Below are positions 12,628 through 64,000 of a stretch of DNA of 64,000 nt, one piece after another. The translations under genes and the position numbers were made by a program. Source of the DNA: Gemmatimonadales bacterium. Its GTDB lineage: Bacteria; Gemmatimonadota; Gemmatimonadetes; Gemmatimonadales; GWC2-71-9. The stretch covers positions 4,684 to 68,683 of the forward strand of contig JBIOXD010000005.1 in NCBI GenBank assembly GCA_044869265.1, read 5' to 3'. The notes under the pieces were generated by a model. That model made no database searches, had not been told where the DNA came from, and saw only the letters and a list, made by a program, of their open reading frames with translations. The stretch's first letter is position 1. Each line of letters begins with the position of its first letter.

Positions 12628-13233
12628 ATGTTCCAAGCCACGCGCCCCGGATGGATCGAGGTCATTTCAGGCGTCATGTTCAGTGGTAAGTCGGAGGAGC
12701 TCATCCGGCGCGTGCGCCGCGCGGTCATCGCCCGCAAGCGCGTGCAAGTCTTTAAATCGCACCTAGATGCGCGTTACGCCGGACTGTTCTCCGTTTCGTC
12801 GCATGATGGGGTCACCGTCGAAGCCGAGCCTGTCGACTCCGCCGAGGAAATCGCGCGCCGGCTGCGGCCCGATATCGAAGTCGTGGCCGTTGACGAAGCC
12901 CAATTTCTCGACGACGGTATCGTCGAAACCGCAAACCGTCTCGCAAACGATGGCGTACGCGTTATCCTCGCAGGCACCGATGTCGATTTTCGCGGACTCC
13001 CCTTCGGCCCGATGCCGACGCTCATGTGCATAGCCGAAGTCGTGGACAAGTTCCAGGCGATCTGCGTGGTGTGCGGCGGCTCGGCGACGCGCAATCAACG
13101 ACTCGTGAACGGCAAACCGGCGCCGTGGGATAGTCCGACGATCATGGTGGGGGGCAGGGAGAGCTATGAAGCTCGCTGCAGACACTGTCACCGCGTTCCC
13201 AGGCAGGACGAGGATCAGACCGCACTACTGTGA
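12628..13233 (+). CDS. tdk: Thymidine kinase
   Basis: GVMFSGKSEELIRR P-loop and a C-terminal CxxC...CxxC zinc ribbon (CVVCG...CRHCH). Confidence 0.95.
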   Translation: MFQATRPGWIEVISGVMFSGKSEELIRRVRRAVIARKRVQVFKSHLDARYAGLFSVSSHDGVTVEAEPVDSAEEIARRLRPDIEVVAVDEAQFLDDGIVETANRLANDGVRVILAGTDVDFRGLPFGPMPTLMCIAEVVDKFQAICVVCGGSATRNQRLVNGKPAPWDSPTIMVGGRESYEARCRHCHRVPRQDEDQTALL

Positions 13234-13306
13234 GCCGTGCGCCGTGCGCCGTGCGCTGGAAATCGACGTGCAGTCCTGCGCACGGCGAACGGCCTACGGC
13301 GCACGC
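13230..13306. repeat. Heptamer-arm hairpin element (GTGMGCC family), copy 1
   Basis: Left arm gtgagcc gtgcgcc gtgcgcc gtgcgc (13230-56). Right arm gcgcac ggcgaac ggcctac ggcgcac gcc (13278-306). The arms are about 85 percent complementary. The tdk TGA lies in the first heptamer. Confidence 0.8.
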
Positions 13307-46643: not shown

Positions 46644-47359
46644 GCTCACTTGAAATCGTCGAAGCGGGACTCGTCCCGTACGGGGAAGCTCTGGAGTGGC
46701 AACGCCGGCTCGCCGACGATCGGATTGGCGGACGACTCTCACATGATGTGTTGCTGTTGGTGGAGCACCCTCCCGTCGTAACCCTTGGGCGCAACTCGAA
46801 GGCCGCACATCTCCTGCGCCCCGCTGGGATCGATGTGTTCGAGGTTGAACGAGGCGGGGACGTGACGTTTCATGGGCCCGGCCAGCTCGTCGGATATCCC
46901 ATCCTTGACTTGAATGGCTACAAGCGGGACCTGCACTGGTACCTGCGCACGCTAGAGCAAGCGTTGATCGACGGACTTGGCCTGCTCGGGCTTCCCGCGG
47001 AACGCAATCCCGGATACACCGGCGTGTGGACGCGCGGGAAGAAGATTGCGAGCATTGGCATTCACGTGAAGCAGTGGGTGACATGGCACGGGTTCGCGCT
47101 CAACGTCAGCACCGATCTCGAGGATTTCGACCGAATCGTTCCCTGCGGCATTCAGGGTGTGGTGATGACATCCGTGGAACGGGAGACGTGCAACGGGCAA
47201 CGTGCAACGGGAGACGAGAAACGGGAAACGGTGTGGCGGGAGAGTGTCGCGGCGGTCATTCGAGGATTTCAAAGCGCCTTTGCCGTGAATCCCATTCCGA
47301 AGAATGGACCCCGTGAGTCACTGCGCTTAAGCGCAGCGTCGGATCGGGCCCACGCTTAA
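46640..47359 (+). CDS. lipB: Octanoyltransferase LipB, with an in-frame heptamer-array insertion near the C-terminus
   Basis: Start MSSLEIVEAG. VLLLVEHPPVVTLGR, RGGDVTFHGPGQLVGYPI, GIHVKQWVTWHGFALN. Confidence 0.9.
   Translation: MSSLEIVEAGLVPYGEALEWQRRLADDRIGGRLSHDVLLLVEHPPVVTLGRNSKAAHLLRPAGIDVFEVERGGDVTFHGPGQLVGYPILDLNGYKRDLHWYLRTLEQALIDGLGLLGLPAERNPGYTGVWTRGKKIASIGIHVKQWVTWHGFALNVSTDLEDFDRIVPCGIQGVVMTSVERETCNGQRATGDEKRETVWRESVAAVIRGFQSAFAVNPIPKNGPRESLRLSAASDRAHA
47174..47229. repeat. Eight direct tandem heptamers (GNGNAAC type) inside lipB
   Basis: gtggaac gggagac gtgcaac gggcaac gtgcaac gggagac gagaaac gggaaac. I found no inverted arm. Confidence 0.8.
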
Positions 47360-50521: not shown

Positions 50522-50596
50522 CCACACCCTAAAGGGTGCGCTCGGCAAGCATTGTCCTTAAGGACAGTGTCTGCCGAGCACAGGCTTTAGCCTGTC
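50522..50596. repeat. Modular palindromic intergenic element, copy 1
   Basis: cacaccc-taaa-gggtg; the gctcggca...tgccgagc outer stem enclosing ttgtcc-ttaa-ggacag; then acaggc-ttta-gcctgt. Confidence 0.8.
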
Positions 50597-55958: not shown

Positions 55959-57318
55959 CCAGTTCCCCCCGTCGTTCCGTGACTTCACCAGTGCGCCGCA
56001 ACGCCCATTGGAAGCAGATCGGACCCACCAACGCATGACATCCGATCATGGCCACGAGCAGCGCTTCCAACGAGACATTCCATTCCGGAAACGCACTGCG
56101 TAGCACGGCGGCGAGTGTGATGGCCATCCCGCCCTGGGATACCAAGCCGAGCCAGCCGTATCTACTCACATCGGCGCTGACGGGGGACTCGCCTCGCCGG
56201 CTTCGTCCAGCCAGTTGAAGCCCCCAGCGCAATCCATTGATCCGCAGGGCAACAAGCAGAATTGCCCATGGCCACAGCTTCAGCTCATCGAGTGAATTGA
56301 AACTGAGCGCTGCCCCCGCGAGTGCAAAAAATACGACATTGACCGGAACCGCGCACCGTTCAAGCTCACCATTGAGCCCCTCGTGCGCGGCCGGGGCCGC
56401 GCTCCGCAGCGTAAACCCGGCTGTGAGACCTATCACAACGGCGCCGAGTCCGGTCAACCGGACAATCTGAGCAATAATGAAAGCAAGCCCAAGAAGCAGC
56501 CACGCGACGCGCATGTTCCCGGCCAACCAAGCGCCCGGTGCCGAACCGGGGCGGAGGTACTGGGCAAGCGCGAGACCGAGCGCGGCGCCTGTCCCGACGG
56601 ATCCGACCAGATGCACCAGCGCCCGCACCGCACTTCCCGGCACGACTGCACCATCGCTGGCCACCACGCTCGCGATTGCCAGGACGACAATGATCCACGC
56701 CGCAGCCACGAGGGTTTGCACGATCGAGACGTCGAGCACGGTCCGTGACAACGGCCCACGAGATTGGGCATCGACGTCTCGAATCACCGCCCACGTGATC
56801 GTAGGAGACGCGGTCGCGGCGAAGGCGCCAAGCACGAGCGCCACGACGAGGGCATCGCGAAATGGCTGGTGCGCAGTCAGAGGAAACCAGGGACTGACCG
56901 TGAGTGTGACAAGCGTAACCAGAAGGAATGGGACGGCCGTGGCGCCCGCGGTCACACGCAGCAGTGCGCCTCGACTCTGTCCGCGGAATGCATCGATCGT
57001 GAGCATCGATCCGGCGGCGAACGCCAGGACCGCCAACGCACTGGTGGAAATGACGCTCAAGGCTTGCAGCTCGTCGACGCGAATCAGACCCAGCCATGGT
57101 GGTCCCGCGACGAAGCCGGTGAGCAGATAGCCGACGATGCGCGGCAACCGGATTCGTTGCGCGAGCGTCCCTCCGACATAGGCCGCCAGCAACAGCAGGC
57201 CGAGCGATAAAGTGGCGCGGGCCTCGACCGGCAACTGTCCGCCCGTCCCCATGGCGCGAGCGAATCGCTGGAGGATCGCGGTGACGACGAATGTGACTGC
57301 GAGCAACAGCCATTGCAT
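55903..57318 (-). CDS. Cation:proton antiporter (CPA family Na+/H+ exchanger)
   Basis: C-terminal 471 aa of track ORF 55903..59103, start MQWLLLAVTF. About 12 TM segments. The upstream 595 codons of the track ORF are antisense to dnaE. Confidence 0.85.
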   Translation of the reverse strand: MQWLLLAVTFVVTAILQRFARAMGTGGQLPVEARATLSLGLLLLAAYVGGTLAQRIRLPRIVGYLLTGFVAGPPWLGLIRVDELQALSVISTSALAVLAFAAGSMLTIDAFRGQSRGALLRVTAGATAVPFLLVTLVTLTVSPWFPLTAHQPFRDALVVALVLGAFAATASPTITWAVIRDVDAQSRGPLSRTVLDVSIVQTLVAAAWIIVVLAIASVVASDGAVVPGSAVRALVHLVGSVGTGAALGLALAQYLRPGSAPGAWLAGNMRVAWLLLGLAFIIAQIVRLTGLGAVVIGLTAGFTLRSAAPAAHEGLNGELERCAVPVNVVFFALAGAALSFNSLDELKLWPWAILLVALRINGLRWGLQLAGRSRRGESPVSADVSRYGWLGLVSQGGMAITLAAVLRSAFPEWNVSLEALLVAMIGCHALVGPICFQWALRRTGEVTERRGELDAPQTALVADRDSLVTRV

Positions 57319-57354
57319 GAGCGCGCAAGATACGGCAGATTCAGCGGCGTAACC

Positions 57355-60300
57355 ATGCCGTTCGTTCATCTCCACACCCACACTGAGTACTCTCTCCTCG
57401 ACGGCGCGAACCGGATCCCGGATCTGCTGGATCGGGTGCAGGCGCTGGGCATGGATTCGCTGGCTATCACCGATCACGGCAACCTGTACGGCGCGTGGTC
57501 GTTCTACGCCGAAGCCAAAGCGCGAAAAATCCGGCCCATCCTGGGGTTCGAGGCGTACCTCGCGTTCGGGAGCCGGCATGCACGCGAGAAGCCGTCTCCG
57601 GACGCGCCGGGCGGTGCGCCGTACTCTCACCTGGTACTGCTCGCCAAGAACCGGACCGGCTATCAGAATCTGATCAAGCTCTCGTCCATTGGGTTTCTCG
57701 AGGGCTATTACCGCCGGCCGCGCATCGACAAGGAGGTATTGGAGCAGCACCACGACGGTATTGTGGGGCTCGCCGCATGCCTCTCGGGCGAGATCGCGTT
57801 GTATCTGCGGCAGGGGAACTACGAAGCCGCCAAGGCGAGCGCCGAGTGGTTTGCCCGCACGTTTGGGCCGAACGGCTTCTGGCTCGAGGTTCAAAACCAC
57901 GGCCTGCCCGAAGAGAAGCTCGTCACGGAAGGGATGTTCCGTCTCGCCGCCGAGCTGGGCCTGCCGCTCGCCGCGACCAACGACGCCCATTATCTGAAGC
58001 GGGAAGACGCCGAAGCGCACGATGTGCTGCTGGCGATCGGCACGGGCAAGGACCTCGACGACCCGAAACGCTTTCGCTTCTTCGGCCAGGAAAGCTACGT
58101 CAAGTCGGAAAAGGAGATGCGCGAGCTGTTCGGCCAGCGGGCGGACGTGCTGACCGAAACCGCACGCGTCGCAGAGCTGTGCGAGTTCGATTTCGAGAAG
58201 CGCTATTTCCTGCCGCAGTATCCCCGCCCCGCGGAGTTCGCGACGGACCGCGACCTGCTGGTGCATTTGGCACGCAAGGGCGCGACCGAACGCTATGGCG
58301 ATCCACTGCCCGCCGCCGTCGAGCAGCGGCTCGAGTACGAGCTCGACGTCGTTACCAGAACGGGCTACGCGGGCTATTTCCTGATCGTGTACGATTTGAT
58401 CAAGGCTGCGCGCGATCGCGGCATTCCGGTGGGACCGGGGCGCGGCTCGGCGGCCGGCTCGCTGATCGCCTACGCGCTGCGCATCACCAACGTCGACCCG
58501 CTCCAGTTCGATCTCCTGTTCGAGCGCTTCCTCAACCCCGAGCGCATCTCGATGCCGGATATCGATCTCGATTTCTGTTTCGAGCGGCGCGGTGAGGTGC
58601 TCGAGTACGCACGGGAGCGGTACGGCCGCGGGTCGGTCGGCCAGATCATCACCTTTGGGACGCTCAAGGCGCGTGCCGCGTTTCGCGATGTCGCGCGAAC
58701 GTTGCGGGTCGAAATGGGCGACGTGGAGCGGCTCACCAAGCTGATCCCATCCGGCCCCGCGTTCAGCGTATCGCTGGCGGAAGCGCGCGAGAAGGTGCCA
58801 GAGGTCAAAGCCGCCGCCGCGCAGGACGAGCGCATCGGCAAAGTGCTGGATCTGGGAGCCAGGATCGAGGGACTCGCGCGGCACGCCTCCGTCCACGCCG
58901 CCGGAGTTGTGATCGCGCCAGGACCGCTCACCGATTACGTCCCGGTCTGCACGGCCCCCGACTCCAAGACCGACGCCGACGCGATCATCACGCAGTACGA
59001 CATGATCGGGCTCGAGCAGGTCGGCATGCTGAAGATCGACCTGCTCGGTCTCAAGACGCTGACCGTGCTGCATGATGCCGCAAACATGGTTCGGGAGCGG
59101 CACGGCGTCACGATCGATCTCGAGCGCCCCGATCTCGACGATCCCAAGGTGTACGCATTGCTCCGGTCGGGCCGGACCGCCGGCATCTTCCAGTTTGAAT
59201 CACCGCTCGCGACCGATTGTCTGCGAAACATGAAATGCGACCGCTTCGACGACCTGGTCGCGACGAACGCCCTGCTTCGCCCCGGGCCGCTCGATACCGG
59301 GATGCATCTCGTATTCATCAACCGGAAGCTGGGCCGCGAGAAGGTCCGCTATCCGCTTCCAGCGCTCGAGGAGATTCTCGCGCCGACGTATGGCGTGATC
59401 GTCTACCAGGAGCAGGTGATGCGCATCGCCAGCGCGTTGGCCGGCTATTCGCTCGCCGAAGCCGACGTGCTGCGCAAGGCGGTCGGGAAGAAGATCAAGG
59501 AGCTGATCCAGGAAGAGCTCGCCAACTTCGTAAAGCGCGCGATCACCCGCGGTCACGACAAACGCACGGTCGAGGAAATCGCCGCGCAGATCGAGACGTT
59601 CGGCCGGTACGGTTTCAACAAGTCGCACTCGGTCGCGTACTCGATCCTGTCCTACCAGACCGGCTGGTTCAAGACGCACTACCCCGCCGAGTTCATGGCC
59701 GCGCTGTTGTCGTCGGAAATCGGCAACACCGATCGGGTGGTGCAGTACATCAACGAGGCGCGCGAGCTTGGGCTTCAGGTCCTGGCGCCGGACGTCAACG
59801 AGTCGGGTTACAAGTTTACGGTCGTAGGCGAACAGCGGATTCGCTTTGGACTCGGCGCCGTCCGCAATGTCGGGGAGGGCGCAATCGCTTCAATCATTGC
59901 GGGTCGAAAGGACGGGCCCTACCGATCGCTCGTGGAGTTGTGCGACCGCATCGACTTGCGGCTGTGCAACAAGCGGGTGATCGAATCGTTGATCGATGCA
60001 GGCGCATGCGATTCGCTGGGAGGCGAACGGTCCCAGCTCGTTGCTGCTCTCGATCATGCCTTCAGCGAAGCGCAGGTCCGCCAGCAGGAGCGTTTTTCCG
60101 GGCAGCACGCGCTCTTTGGAGCCGAGGCCCCAACCCCGAGCCCCGAGGCCCAGCTTCCGGATATCCCCCCCTGGAGCGAGCACGAGCGCCTGACGCGCGA
60201 AAAGGCCGTGCTCGGCTTCTTCATCTCCGGGCACCCCCTCGCCAAGTACCACACGGAGGTAGAGCTTTTCGGGACGCGCACGACCGCCACGCTGGGGATG

Positions 60301-60834
60301 TGGAGCGAGCAGAAGGTGACCATCCCGGCGGTCGTCACTGTGGTGAAGCGGCAAATTTCGAAGAAGTCCGGCGCCGAATATGCGCGCCTCACACTGGAGG
60401 ATTTCCACGGGTCAGCGGAGGCGCTGGTATTTCCGGAGTCGTGGGCCAAGCTCAACGGCGTGATTCGCGCCGATGGCGCCTACCTCCTCACCGGCGGTTA
60501 TATCGCGCGCGACCGCGGTGAGGAACAGGCGCCATTTATTGTCGATGCGGTCCGCCTGCTCGACGATTTGAAACCGGCTGGTGCGATCGGTCTCGCGCTC
60601 CGCTGGACGATGAGCCGGCGACCCGATCCCGAGACCGCGCGTGCGATTGCCGCGCTGTGTGCGGCCCATCCGGGGCCGACCCCGGTGTTCCTCGAGTGGA
60701 CCGGGGGCAACGGCTCCGGCAGTGAGACGGTGCGGTTGCGCAGTCGCTCGTTCCGGGTGGATGCGGCCGACGATCTGCTGGCGGCATTACGGGAGATTGT
60801 TGGTCCCGATGGGGTGACGTTGGTACGGGCGTGA
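57355..60834 (+). CDS. dnaE: DNA polymerase III alpha subunit
   Basis: Start MPFVHLHTHTEYSLLDG (PHP domain). PDIDLDF, the KSHSVAYS finger region, and the OB fold. Confidence 0.97.
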   Translation: MPFVHLHTHTEYSLLDGANRIPDLLDRVQALGMDSLAITDHGNLYGAWSFYAEAKARKIRPILGFEAYLAFGSRHAREKPSPDAPGGAPYSHLVLLAKNRTGYQNLIKLSSIGFLEGYYRRPRIDKEVLEQHHDGIVGLAACLSGEIALYLRQGNYEAAKASAEWFARTFGPNGFWLEVQNHGLPEEKLVTEGMFRLAAELGLPLAATNDAHYLKREDAEAHDVLLAIGTGKDLDDPKRFRFFGQESYVKSEKEMRELFGQRADVLTETARVAELCEFDFEKRYFLPQYPRPAEFATDRDLLVHLARKGATERYGDPLPAAVEQRLEYELDVVTRTGYAGYFLIVYDLIKAARDRGIPVGPGRGSAAGSLIAYALRITNVDPLQFDLLFERFLNPERISMPDIDLDFCFERRGEVLEYARERYGRGSVGQIITFGTLKARAAFRDVARTLRVEMGDVERLTKLIPSGPAFSVSLAEAREKVPEVKAAAAQDERIGKVLDLGARIEGLARHASVHAAGVVIAPGPLTDYVPVCTAPDSKTDADAIITQYDMIGLEQVGMLKIDLLGLKTLTVLHDAANMVRERHGVTIDLERPDLDDPKVYALLRSGRTAGIFQFESPLATDCLRNMKCDRFDDLVATNALLRPGPLDTGMHLVFINRKLGREKVRYPLPALEEILAPTYGVIVYQEQVMRIASALAGYSLAEADVLRKAVGKKIKELIQEELANFVKRAITRGHDKRTVEEIAAQIETFGRYGFNKSHSVAYSILSYQTGWFKTHYPAEFMAALLSSEIGNTDRVVQYINEARELGLQVLAPDVNESGYKFTVVGEQRIRFGLGAVRNVGEGAIASIIAGRKDGPYRSLVELCDRIDLRLCNKRVIESLIDAGACDSLGGERSQLVAALDHAFSEAQVRQQERFSGQHALFGAEAPTPSPEAQLPDIPPWSEHERLTREKAVLGFFISGHPLAKYHTEVELFGTRTTATLGMWSEQKVTIPAVVTVVKRQISKKSGAEYARLTLEDFHGSAEALVFPESWAKLNGVIRADGAYLLTGGYIARDRGEEQAPFIVDAVRLLDDLKPAGAIGLALRWTMSRRPDPETARAIAALCAAHPGPTPVFLEWTGGNGSGSETVRLRSRSFRVDAADDLLAALREIVGPDGVTLVRA
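60123..60150. repeat. C-rich heptamers x4 inside the dnaE linker
   Basis: cgaggcc ccaaccc cgagccc cgaggcc encodes EAPTPSPEAQ. Same unit type as the right arm at 62099-62134. Confidence 0.7.
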
Positions 60835-60919: not shown

Positions 60920-61876
60920 ATGGCGACATATACCCTGGATTTCGAACGCCCACTGCTCGAGCTGGAAAAACAGATCGAGGAGCTGAAGCGCGTCGCCGGC
61001 GAAAAACCCGATTTCGCGAAGAATATCAAGCCGCTGGAAGACCAGCTGGCCGCGCTGCGCGTCGAGATCTACCGCAATTTGACCCCGATGCAGCGGGTGC
61101 AGGTCGCCCGGCACCCCCGGCGTCCCTATCCGCTCGACTACGTCAACACGGTCTTCACTGATTTCGTCGAGCTCCACGGTGACCGCCTCTACCGCGACGA
61201 TCCGGCGATTGTCGGCGGCTGGGCGCGGCTGGACGGCACCAGCGTGATGGTGATCGGCCATCAGAAGGGTCGCGACACCAAGGACAACCTCTATCGCAAC
61301 TTCGGAATGGCCCATCCCGAGGGCTACCGCAAGGCGATGCGGCTGATGCGCCTTGCCGCCAAATTCGGCGCCCCCGTCGTCACGCTTGTCGATACGCCCG
61401 GCGCGTACCCGGGCCTCGGCGCGGAAGAGCGCGGCCAAGCCGAGGCGATCGCGAGCAGTCTGATCGAAATGGCGTCGCTGCAAACCCCGATCATTACTGC
61501 GGTCATCGGCGAAGGCGGCTCGGGCGGGGCGCTCGCGGTCGGGCTCGCCGATCGTGTGTTGATGCTCGAGAACTCGGTGTATTCCGTGATCTCGCCGGAA
61601 GGTTGTGCCGCGATTCTATGGAAGGATGCCAGCCAGCGTGAGCGCGCCGCGGAGGCTCTCAAGATTACCGCCCAAGACCTGCTCAACCTGGGCGTGATCG
61701 ACGAGATCATTCCCGAGCCGGCGGGCGGCGCACACTCGGACCCCGAAGCCGCGGCCGCGGCGCTCGGCGACGCCCTGCAGCGGCATCTCGGTCAACTGCG
61801 CAAATACCGGGTCGACAAGCTCCTCAAACGCCGGGAAGAAAAGTACCTTTCCATGGGTGCGCTGACCGAGAAGTGA
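60920..61876 (+). CDS. accA: Acetyl-CoA carboxylase carboxyltransferase alpha subunit
   Basis: [16 protein letters not shown]...GAYPG..AEERGQ. The track start at 60917 is a TTG one codon upstream. Confidence 0.95.
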
Positions 61877-61877
61877 T

Positions 61878-62744
61878 TTGACGCATGTCTTGGAAGTCCG
61901 GTTCAAAGGGAACCGGCGCGAATATTTCAGCTGGCCGTCCGAAGACGCTCTCCGCGTTGACGATGGCGTCATCGTAGAGGTCGAGCGCGGGCAGGACTTT
62001 GGCGTGGTCTCCGCTGTGGGGGCCGTCGCTGCGAAGAAGTGCGAGCGCTGTGGTAACTGTGGGGCCTCGGGCCTGGGGCCTGGGGACTCGGGCAGTTCCC
62101 AGGCCCAAGGCCCCAGCCCCGAGGCCCTCAGGCCAGTTCTTCGCAAGGCCACTGACGAAGACCGCAAGACCGCCACACAGCTGCGCGAAAACGACGAAGA
62201 AGTGCGCCGCGTTGTGCGCGATCGCGTCCGCCAGCATTCCCTCCCGATGAAAGTCTCCGACGCCGAATGGCAGTGGGACAAGCGCAAGCTGACGATCTAT
62301 TTCACCGCCGAGCAGCGCGTGGACTTCCGGGCGCTGGTGCGCGACCTGGCCGGCTTGTTCCGCACGCGCATCGAGCTGCGGCAGATCGGCGCGCGCGACG
62401 AGGCCCGGCGCCTCGATGGCATCGGCCGCTGCGGCCGGCAGCTCTGCATCTCGAGCTGGCTGCCGGAAGGACGGCCCGTCAGCCTGTCGCTCGCCAAGGC
62501 GCAAGGGCTGTCGCTCAATCCCGTGCAGATCTCCGGTCCCTGCGGGCGGCTGTTATGCTGCCTGCACTACGAGCACGATTTCTACGTGGAGCAGCGCAAG
62601 CGCTTTCCCAAAGAAGGGAAAACGGTCCGCACGTCCGAGGGGATCGAGCGCGTCGTGTCGGTCGACATCTTTCGCGAACGCGTGATGCTCCGTTCCGACG
62701 CCGGGACGACGCGCGTCGTCACACTCGAACAGCTGCACGCGTAG
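61878..62744 (+). CDS. PSP1 domain protein (YaaT/RicT-like)
   Basis: VRFKGNRREYF, and the PSP1 core FRTRIELRQIGARDEARRLDGIGRCGRQLC...GPCGRLLCCL. Confidence 0.9.
   Translation: MTHVLEVRFKGNRREYFSWPSEDALRVDDGVIVEVERGQDFGVVSAVGAVAAKKCERCGNCGASGLGPGDSGSSQAQGPSPEALRPVLRKATDEDRKTATQLRENDEEVRRVVRDRVRQHSLPMKVSDAEWQWDKRKLTIYFTAEQRVDFRALVRDLAGLFRTRIELRQIGARDEARRLDGIGRCGRQLCISSWLPEGRPVSLSLAKAQGLSLNPVQISGPCGRLLCCLHYEHDFYVEQRKRFPKEGKTVRTSEGIERVVSVDIFRERVMLRSDAGTTRVVTLEQLHA
62061..62134. repeat. G-rich/C-rich heptamer-arm hairpin inserted in frame in the PSP1 gene
   Basis: Left arm ggggcct cgggcct ggggcct ggggact cgggcag. Loop ttc. Right arm ccaggcc caaggcc ccagccc cgaggcc ctcaggcc. Confidence 0.85.
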
Positions 62745-64000
62745 TGACGGGTTCGAAGTACTATCTCACCACGGCGATCGACTACTCCAATGGCGATCCG
62801 CATCTGGGACACGCGCTCGAGAAGGTCGGCGCGGACTGCATCGCCCGCTATCGGCGCCTGTGCGGCGATGAGGTGCAGTTCCTCATGGGGATGGATGAGC
62901 ACAGTCAGTCCGTCATCCAAGCGGCCGCGCGCGCGCGCGTCAGCCCGCGCGAATGGGTCGATCGCATGGCACAGACGTTCGCCGACTACTGGCGCCGGCT
63001 CGAATGCAGCAACGACGACTGGATTCGCACCACCGAGCCGCGTCACGGGCGCGGCGTGGTGGCACTCCTCGAGCGTATCCAGCAGCGCCGGCCCGACGAT
63101 CTCTACGTCGCCGACTACGAAGGGCTGTACTGCACCGGCTGCGAGGAATTCAAGCAGCCGGCGCAGATAGCCGACGGCCGTTGCATCGAGCATCCCACCC
63201 TCGAGCTGATACAAACCAGGGAACGGAATCACTTCTTCCGGCTCAGCGCCTACGGCCGGCAGCTGCTCCAGCTCATCGAGAGCAACGAATTCCGTGTCGA
63301 ACCCGCGATCCGGCGGAACGAGGTCGTGCGGCTGATCGAGGATGGATTGCAGGACGTTTCTATTTCGCGCCAGCGGCAGCAGTGGGGTATTCCCTTCCCC
63401 GGCGATCCCGAGCAGACGGTCTACGTCTGGTTCGACGCACTCATCAATTACCTCTCGGCGACCGGCTTCCCCGAGCCCGGCTATGAGCGCCTCTGGCCGG
63501 CGGACCTGCATGTCGTCGGCAAAGGCATCACGCGCTTCCATTGTGTGATCTGGCCGGCCATGCTGCTCGCCGCGGGGCTCGAGCTCCCGACGCTCGTCTG
63601 GGCTCACGGCTACGTGCAGTGGGAAGGCGCGAAGATGAGCAAGACGGCCGGCACCGCGGTGAGCCTGGGCGCCGCGATCGAGCGCTACGGCGCCGATGCG
63701 CTCCGCTACTTCCTGCTACGTGAAGTCGGATTCGAAAACGACGGCAATTTCAGCTGGGACCGCTTTGATGCGCGCTACACCGCCGATCTCGCCGACACAT
63801 TTGGCAATCTCATGTCGCGATCGCTCTCCATGATCCACCGGTACCGTGGGGGCATCGTCCCTGATGACAATGCAGCCGATTCGTCACTCGAACGCGCCGG
63901 GCAGGAGACGGTCCGTTCCTATGCGGCAGCAATGGACGCCTTGGACCTGCAACAAGGGGCCGCGCTGATAATCGAGCTTGCCTCTCGCGCGAATCGGTAC
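62744..64000 (+). CDS. metG: Methionyl-tRNA synthetase; N-terminal part only, because the ORF runs off the right edge and is absent from the ORF track
   Basis: Hand translation from GTG at 62744 (TAGTG overlap) gives VTGSKYYLTTAIDYSNGDPHLGHALEKV (HIGH-type motif) and KMSKTAG (KMSKS motif). Confidence 0.9.
   Translation, partial: MTGSKYYLTTAIDYSNGDPHLGHALEKVGADCIARYRRLCGDEVQFLMGMDEHSQSVIQAAARARVSPREWVDRMAQTFADYWRRLECSNDDWIRTTEPRHGRGVVALLERIQQRRPDDLYVADYEGLYCTGCEEFKQPAQIADGRCIEHPTLELIQTRERNHFFRLSAYGRQLLQLIESNEFRVEPAIRRNEVVRLIEDGLQDVSISRQRQQWGIPFPGDPEQTVYVWFDALINYLSATGFPEPGYERLWPADLHVVGKGITRFHCVIWPAMLLAAGLELPTLVWAHGYVQWEGAKMSKTAGTAVSLGAAIERYGADALRYFLLREVGFENDGNFSWDRFDARYTADLADTFGNLMSRSLSMIHRYRGGIVPDDNAADSSLERAGQETVRSYAAAMDALDLQQGAALIIELASRANRY

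Follow-up and report, generated by a model that had tools for sequence, protein, structure and literature searches.

The element described here is a hairpin of tandem heptamers that lies in frame within ricT, a gene of the yaaT/PSP1 family, in a 64-kb stretch of DNA (64,000 nucleotides, hereafter the window) from a Gemmatimonadales bacterium. The genome carrying the window (G000) has a size of 4.05 Mb in 139 contigs with 65% GC. It was compared with the genome of the closest ricT relative (G001), with further Gemmatimonadota genomes (other G-numbers), with fetched loci (L-numbers), comprising 160 ricT loci of Gemmatimonadota, drawn from genomes and metagenomes, as well as the mutL loci L195-L201, and with RicT homologue sequences (P-numbers). 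Downstream of dnaE, the gene order is accA - ricT - metG. The ricT product was identified as RicT/YaaT by the family model NF041131 (RicT_YaaT_fam, 243.9 bits against a cut-off of 70, 1.2e-72) and contains a PSP1 domain (PF04468) at residues 86-170 (1.6e-32, 112 bits against a cut-off of 27); 120 homologues at 80-96% identity carry the source names RicT/YaaT. The positions of the features are given in Table 1.

Table 1. Positions of the ricT element, of further heptamer arrays and of other palindrome and transposase features. Positions without a prefix are those of the window.
Feature	Position	Strand	Description
ricT (yaaT/PSP1 family)	61878..62744	+	288 aa; TTG start 1 nt past the accA stop
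Cys motif codons	62040..62060	+	C55-E-R-C58-G-N-C61, directly 5' of the repeat
Linker codons 62-86	62061..62135	+	75 nt, translated, predicted disordered
G-rich arm	62061..62095	+	ggggcct cgggcct ggggcct ggggact cgggcag; encodes GASGLGPGDSGS
Spacer 'ttc'	62096..62098	+	three bases separating the arms (sequence)
Predicted loop 'cagtt'	about 62093-62097	+	RNA fold prediction
C-rich arm	62099..62134	+	ccaggcc caaggcc ccagccc cgaggcc ctcaggcc; encodes QAQGPSPEALR(P)
dnaE half-element	60119-60158	+	in dnaE (57313-60834); GAGGCCC CAACCCC GAGCCCC GAGGCCC, encodes EAPTPSPEAQ
lipB array	47174-47229	+	eight direct GNGNAAC units, in frame near the LipB C-terminus, encodes TCNGQRATGDEKRET
mutL linker, G000	G000 C27:32926-33040		left (GGGGCCT)4, right (AGGCCCC)4
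mutL linker, G007, G003, G010			left (GGTGTCA)4, right (TGACACC)4
mutL linker, G002, G049			left (CGGCTAT)3, right (CCGATAG)4
mutL linker, G001			left (CNTCAGC)4, right (GCTGACG)4
mutL linker, G076			left GGGAATC, right GGCTCCC
C-first palindrome copies in G000 (examples)	C20:11050, C21:41219, C56:9060, C137:18556		
Intact Y1 (IS200/RAYT-like) genes, four	G000 C38:4501-4836, C139:3865-4206, C127:41883-42224, C15:35025-35363		

The element (62061-62134, 74 nt) is built of five G-rich heptamers, the triplet 'ttc' and five C-rich heptamers; it is in frame, and codons 62-86 are translated as GASGLGPGDSGSSQAQGPSPEALRP. Tandem Repeats Finder reported a G-rich array at 62062-62093 (period 7, 4.6 copies, GGGCCTC) and a C-rich array at 62098-62134 (period 7, 5.1 copies, CCCAGGC). 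The best inverted repeat has 30-nt arms at 62062-62091 and 62098-62127, which are 87% complementary with 6 nt between them, and ranks among the top three close inverted repeats of the window. A heptamer hairpin in frame in a PSP1/RicT-like gene had been proposed by the initial annotation, and the letters, the repeat finder, the inverted repeat and the open reading frame (ORF) agree on it. Another top-ranking close inverted repeat of the window, at 13230-13304, is a GTG(C/A)GCC heptamer hairpin with 31-nt arms of 84% complementarity.

The predicted RNA fold of 62055-62140 has an energy of -62 kcal/mol, compared with -45.0 +/- 3.9 kcal/mol in dinucleotide shuffles (z = -4.4, 0 of 200 as stable). 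Canonical G-quadruplex (G4) motifs (G3+N1-7 x4) were found on the + strand at 62061-62085, in the G-rich arm, and on the - strand at 62104-62127, in the C-rich arm, and G4Hunter, run with 25-nt windows, gave maxima of +1.76 and -1.64 at the element, in keeping with the G-tract potential suggested earlier for both strands. As about 25 other regions of the 65% GC window exceed a G4Hunter score of 1.5, the score is by itself unexceptional, and G4 or i-motif formation by the ricT element is a potential read from its sequence. Neither an intrinsic terminator nor a promoter was detected in 61700-62900, the hairpin being followed by cagttcttcgcaagg in place of a U-tract. A known RNA family was likewise ruled out by an Rfam scan (E<=1), whose only matches, at 17-29 bits, stayed below the gathering scores (50-110) and were to miRNA-precursor hairpins of a generic GC-rich kind.

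Relative to RicT proteins of distant lineages, the element is an insertion. In most of the best 150 hits from a search of 1.84 billion cluster representatives (about 45% identity), residue ~59 pairs with residue ~83 of the query, and an alignment of 20 diverse homologues (40-50% identity) has a gap of ~24 residues at the element, between the N-terminal beta region and the 'LR.AT' motif, with no linker of equal length and similar sequence among these homologues. This gap, together with predicted disorder, supports the proposed in-frame insertion in the linker that joins the N-terminal beta region to the PSP1 core. The expected excess of about 20-25 residues stands against distant homologues, where it arises because a phylum-specific Cys motif supplies part of it and the repeat supplies the rest; it does not stand against the nearest hairpin-less relatives, whose linkers (C-[SGN]-Q-E-[ST]-S-P-A-P-R-A-I-V-R) are 15-16 residues shorter, the hairpin form substituting for about 9 residues of the short linker.

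Of the three cysteines in this motif, C55 is invariant and C58 and C61 are nearly so (41 sequences), and the motif was present in 160 of 160 fetched ricT loci in the form KC.RC..C or KC...C..C. It is missing from 19 of the 20 aligned distant homologues, P0152 having a partial KC. The Gemmatimonadota-specific motif may serve as an extra metal or Fe-S ligand set. The third Cys is lacking in L085. Measured from the Cys motif to 'I[VL]R.AT.ED', the linker spans 25-65 residues over the 160 loci and 45 in the source RicT. A search of the PDB gave no RicT structure match, and the insert was placed instead by an AlphaFold2 model computed from an alignment of 41 sequences (A2), which predicts residues 59-85 to be devoid of secondary structure, with a predicted local distance difference test score (pLDDT) <50 at residues 60-81.

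The element had been taken for a singularity of ricT, which it is not: it is one copy of a set of heptamer-array hairpins found throughout the genome, and several other genes contain such a copy in frame. With a detection floor of four units, 250 tandem arrays of period 7 were found in G000, compared with 27, 105, 42 and 43 for periods 5, 6, 8 and 9, respectively; 156 of the 250 have 4-5 units. The commonest unit, AGGCCCC/GGGGCCT, makes up 69 arrays at 57 loci. Further heptamer families are ACCACGC, ACGGCGC, AAACGGG and AATGATC, and three of these (ACGGCGC, AATGATC, ACCACGC) have no G-tracts, yet share the same period and architecture. In inverted array pairs, the G-rich arm was 5' in 27 of 27 cases, which is the polarity of the ricT copy. 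The pattern GGGGCCTx3 (<=2 mismatches) matched G000 at 172 places, its reversed control at none; the G-rich arm of ricT fits it with 1 mismatch at G000:C5:66744-66764. The same pattern gave 51 matches in G001, 12, 6 and 7 in three congeners, and 0-1 in nearly all of 80 other genomes of the phylum. With 172 and 51 matches against 0-1 in most of the phylum, the GGGGCCT family is therefore a recent burst particular to this species lineage. Arrays were also found at contig ends (C6:28-64, C9:1-28, C15:43439-43474, C21:137897-137935); they are frequent there and probably limit the assembly.

About 46 of the 250 arrays (~18%, as counted with a crude ORF caller based on GC content at third codon positions, GC3, rather than a gene finder) fall within long ORFs whose coding signature is seen on either side of the array. 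Hosts confirmed by Pfam are an E2 acyltransferase, MutL, an FtsX-type permease, hydantoinase B and Nnr. In the E2 acyltransferase the array is located between the E3-binding and catalytic domains, and in MutL a G-array and a C-array stand on the two sides of a conserved PLELF motif, in the stretch from DNA_mis_repair to MutL_C. Among congeners, the mutL linker has exchanged both unit and peptide on both arms, with position, architecture and frame unchanged, so that five units are found within one genus (Table 1). In the window itself, the dnaE array is a lone C-rich arm, in frame and of the same family as the C-rich arm of ricT. As the family is genome-wide and has copies in other genes, most grounds for a ricT-specific role vanish. 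For the lipB array of GNGNAAC units, no inverted partner was seen.

An orthologous hairpin, recognized by its peptide (GSGLG.RDSG..E..AP.PEPL), was found in 19 of the 160 ricT loci, with partial forms in L113 and L127. All of these hairpins are strong (-41 to -79 kcal/mol over 69-78 nt), and their units include GGGGCCT, GGGGCTC, GGGACTC, GGGATTC and GGGGTTC. In the genus, ricT has the hairpin in G000, G001, G002, G003 and G007 and lacks it in G010, G049, G057 and G065; ricT of G076 has a small unrelated palindrome. In a tree of the rest of the RicT protein, hairpin carriers were mixed among short-linker forms. Forcing the carriers, a group named after the tree had been seen, into one clade was disfavoured (delta lnL 150; approximately unbiased (AU) test, p = 0.00015), and a single vertical origin with the carriers as a clade was rejected on this result. 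Site association with the type of linker was restricted to residues 61-105. The hairpin alleles are homologous to each other, with the same boundaries, the same number of units and similar loops; the short alleles are homologous to each other and to the '...PAPRAIVR' linkers of outgroups, which makes repeated loss an unlikely origin of the short form. The simplest reading is that two allele classes were swapped by recombination among close lineages; recurrent formation of the hairpin, rather than allele exchange, may also account for the distribution. The short-linker orthologues show no unusual RNA structure (z about 0), and RicT therefore does not need the hairpin. DNA alignments of short and hairpin forms, which involve short, low-complexity sequences, hint at a match of the short form to the loop and the start of the C-rich arm. 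In some ricT orthologues a GGGGCCT seed exists inside Cys-Gly-Ala-Cys codons (TGC GGG GCC TGY). Growth of the array by slippage from such a seed is a weak speculation, as the last Cys codon stands between seed and array and the seed is absent in the query.

Evolution of the ricT copy was analysed in an alignment of 16 distinct hairpin-carrier sequences with no significant gaps (A1). Identity at codon positions 1/2/3 was 0.74/0.77/0.71 in the linker versus 0.93/0.95/0.66 in the rest of the gene, and residue identity of the linker among carriers was only 0.60; the linker peptide is unconstrained, and its DNA drifts in a near-neutral manner at about the synonymous rate. Some length variants preserve the frame: P0106 is longer by 7 residues (three units, 21 nt), and L082, L087, L113 and P0045 have deletions. 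Mismatches in the stem, counted in a fixed register, comprised 40 G·U and 43 A·C, an even ratio on which selection on a sense mRNA hairpin was rejected as the main force, and RNAalifold yielded essentially zero covariation energy. In the 33-pair stem, 11 pairs had changed on both sides, compared with 6.3 +/- 1.4 in shuffles (0 of 500 reached 11), and sliding the register left 0-3 such pairs. If a perfect palindrome of the ancestor had simply decayed neutrally, the codon-position data would be accounted for, but not this excess of double-sided changes, for which reason arm-to-arm conversion was added to the explanation. Since the arms covary without a preference for G·U, complementarity appears to be kept at the DNA level and not by selection on an mRNA fold. 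The ricT arms also resemble the unit of their own genome, with GGGGCCT and no GGGGCTC matches in G000 and G001, and GGGGCTN in G002; for three or four genomes, this match is suggestive only.

With a probability of roughly 0.72, we consider the ricT element to be a tolerated in-frame copy of the genome-wide G-first heptamer-array hairpins, without a function specific to RicT; both this lack of function and the mechanism of renewal are what we infer from the comparisons above. Hairpins of this class consist of arms of about 4-5 tandem 7-nt units with the G-rich arm 5', GGGGCCT being dominant in G000, and the ricT copy sits in a predicted-disordered, length-variable linker, the only part of RicT able to tolerate almost any sequence. 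It would persist in ricT because 75 nt is a multiple of three and the unit is free of stop codons in every frame, and would be translated to a Gly/Ser/Pro-rich spacer whose sequence is free of selection. The hairpin form would have originated in one Gemmatimonadales genus, on a short ancestral linker of the C-[SGN]-Q-E-S-S-P-A-P-R-A-I-V-R type, and later have been passed between lineages by recombination, or lost. Complementarity of the arms may be kept by slippage within arrays combined with arm-to-arm templated repair or conversion, and the same process would renew heptamer arrays elsewhere in G000. Several points weigh against this account. The linker positions (0.71-0.77) are slightly more conserved than third positions elsewhere in the gene (0.66), and there may be weak constraint on the linker. 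The arm covariation in ricT and the complementary arm swap in mutL would also fit selection for the hairpin, as DNA or RNA. The group used in the AU test was defined post hoc, and a protein of 260 residues taken from metagenome contigs gives noisy trees.

An unlikely alternative is a polar, length-limited DNA process that writes and rewrites both arms at fixed sites, including sites in reading frames, such that the hairpin and not the peptide is conserved; the ricT and mutL linkers would then be recurrent targets, with arms renewed to the currently active unit of the genome. It is given this weight because of the strict G-first polarity (27/27), the GGGGCCT burst, the match of arms to genome unit, the five mutL units and the covariation in ricT. 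We regard as rather improbable that the Gly/Ser/Pro-rich peptide is useful as a spacer, tuning how far the Cys-motif domain stands from the PSP1 core, or how RicT interacts with RicA/RicF. In favour of a spacer, at least 19 independent assemblies have the insertion in frame, mostly with 25-26 codons, and it is predicted to be disordered and linker-like and varies in frame-preserving steps (P0106, +7 aa; deletions in L082, L087 and L113); a residue identity as low as 0.60 with all codon positions drifting alike, a linker of 25-65 residues across the phylum, congeners that manage without the insertion, and the intermixing of carriers and non-carriers speak against it. That heptamer arrays are often at contig ends in the draft G000 might raise the suspicion of an assembly or binning artefact, in which a repeat was collapsed or mis-joined into ricT, but the element is inside an intact ORF, about 2 kb from the window end, and many assemblies made independently in different projects (L001, L002, L015, L081-L125, G007) have an orthologous hairpin at these codons, so that the chance of an artefact is negligible.

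Two functions of the nucleic acid itself are both very improbable. As a structure in ricT mRNA, the hairpin could slow the ribosome after C-x2-C-x2-C emerges, which would aid co-translational metal/Fe-S binding or folding of the domain, or could be an RNase or stability site in the accA-ricT-metG transcript. The very stable fold (-62 kcal/mol, z -4.4), its place directly 3' of the Cys-motif codons, the differing strong hairpins of several lineages at this site and arm covariation above that of shuffles all suit such a role. It is opposed by the many orthologues, including those of G010, G049, G057 and G065, that have the Cys motif with structureless short linkers (z about 0), by a G·U to A·C count (40 to 43) not expected under selection on the sense RNA, by the lack of both a U-tract terminator and an Rfam family, and by the occurrence of the same hairpins in unrelated genes and intergenic DNA. 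A G4/i-motif switch in DNA or RNA, of the sort proposed for the GGGNATC repeats of Xanthomonas and Nostoc and affecting local transcription, replication or genome stability, could draw on the four-tract motifs of both strands (G4Hunter +1.76 / -1.64), on the preference of arrays for 4-5 units, the number that a G4 needs, and on the same unit bias, accompanied by circular dichroism evidence, in passages on related repeats (PMC4692102). Here each G arm adjoins its own complement, however, and a 30-bp hairpin or duplex would compete; the abundant tract-free families (ACGGCGC, AATGATC, ACCACGC) share the architecture, so G4 formation cannot explain the class; congeners carry the G4-incompetent units GGTGTCA and CGGCTAT in mutL in place of GGGGCCT; and the G4Hunter score is matched at about 25 further positions of the window.

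Xanthomonas has G-rich heptamer repeats with the unit GGGAATC, and Nostoc has such repeats with GGGGA(C/T)T, some of them arranged as convergent inverted pairs; according to passages of the report describing them, they favour arrays of four units, are depleted from coding DNA and fold into G4 in vitro (Rehm et al., 2015, PLoS One, PMC4692102). Measured against those passages, the repeats of G000 are alike in being tandem 7-nt units with G3-4 tracts, in having about four units and in being G4-capable, here as judged by motif scores, and also in their hundreds of dispersed copies, the frequent presence of a nearby inverted array and a coding share of ~18%. They differ in belonging to the phylum Gemmatimonadota and in their units, GGGGCCT/CGGGCCT along with tract-free ones rather than GGGNATC or GGGGA(C/T)T. 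The ricT copy, which is translated as part of a conserved gene whose frame it keeps, differs from the Xanthomonas/Nostoc arrays as these passages present them, and neither the G-first polarity (27/27 in G000) nor the swap of units on both arms between congeners has a counterpart in the passages of PMC4692102 that were searched. No literature was found on such heptamer repeats in Gemmatimonadota. The repeats of ricT and G000 are thus a new member of the Xanthomonas/Nostoc-type heptamer repeat class, with a different sequence family.

The Rickettsia palindromic elements (RPEs), made known by Ogata and co-workers in 2000, are reportedly selfish palindromic repeats that lie in frame in protein-coding genes. 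They measure 100-150 bp and have family-specific sequences without tandem heptamers. Like RPEs, the hairpins studied here are dispersed palindromes found in conserved ORFs with the frame kept (ricT, where 75 nt make 25 codons; mutL, E2 and FtsX), add a peptide at a structurally permissive place (disorder in ricT, positions between Pfam domains in E2 and MutL), and vary in presence among relatives. Unlike RPEs, the ricT element has 74 nt and is made of tandem heptamers, and its host is a free-living high-GC soil bacterium; no sequence relation is expected. With repetitive extragenic palindromic (REP) elements, which are mobilised by REP-associated tyrosine transposases (RAYT) of the Y1 type, the heptamer hairpins share that they are short, GC-rich, hairpin-forming, dispersed and mostly intergenic, but they have no conserved non-repeat core and are not located beside Y1 genes.

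For RicT itself the element carries little weight. The insert marks a permissive linker and is best ignored or masked when Gemmatimonadota RicT is aligned, modelled as a domain or predicted as a structure. It provides a clean, datable case of a genome-wide repeat colonising housekeeping genes, in which hairpin-bearing and hairpin-free ricT alleles circulate in one genus, unlinked from the remaining gene. Heptamer arrays have been noted, and left unexplained, since the short tandemly repeated repetitive (STRR) sequences of cyanobacteria and the GGGAATC repeats of Xanthomonas; the origin of the arrays and the lasting complementarity of their arms can now be tested by comparative genomics. Of some interest in themselves are the process of arm complementarity and unit replacement, the strict G-first polarity and the circulation of alleles within the genus.

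At the same ricT codons, different strong hairpins were found in L023, L150 (-110 kcal/mol, z -7.5) and L058. In the ricT linker of L057, L064, L142-L160 and L092, a C-first palindrome with the arms CCTCACCCCC..CCCCCTCTCCG-nnn-CGGAGAGGGGG..GGGGGTGAGG is present, and this family is dispersed in G000 too, as CTCACCCCC..CCCCCTCTCCG-loop-CGGAGAGGGGG..GGGGGTGAG, with 16 strict-core copies (examples in Table 1). The ricT linker codons are a recurrent landing site, used by at least two unrelated palindrome families across lineages. Five Y1 transposase genes (PF01797) in G000 are flanked by other palindromes (GACCCCGGGC..., GTCCTAAAGGAC..., CCCACTCTAAAGAGTGGG), and no heptamer arrays flank any of these five Y1/RAYT genes; mobilisation of the heptamer hairpins in the RAYT/REP manner was rejected, as Y1 genes are present but bordered by other palindrome families. 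The four intact Y1 genes each have a palindrome family of their own (GACCCCGGGCGCAAGCCCGGGGTC; GTCCTAAAGGACA with CTGCCGAGCACAGGC; CCCACTCTAAAGAGTGGG), and the second of these families (GTCCTAAAGGACA with CTGCCGAGCACAGGC) recurs in the window at 50524-50595.

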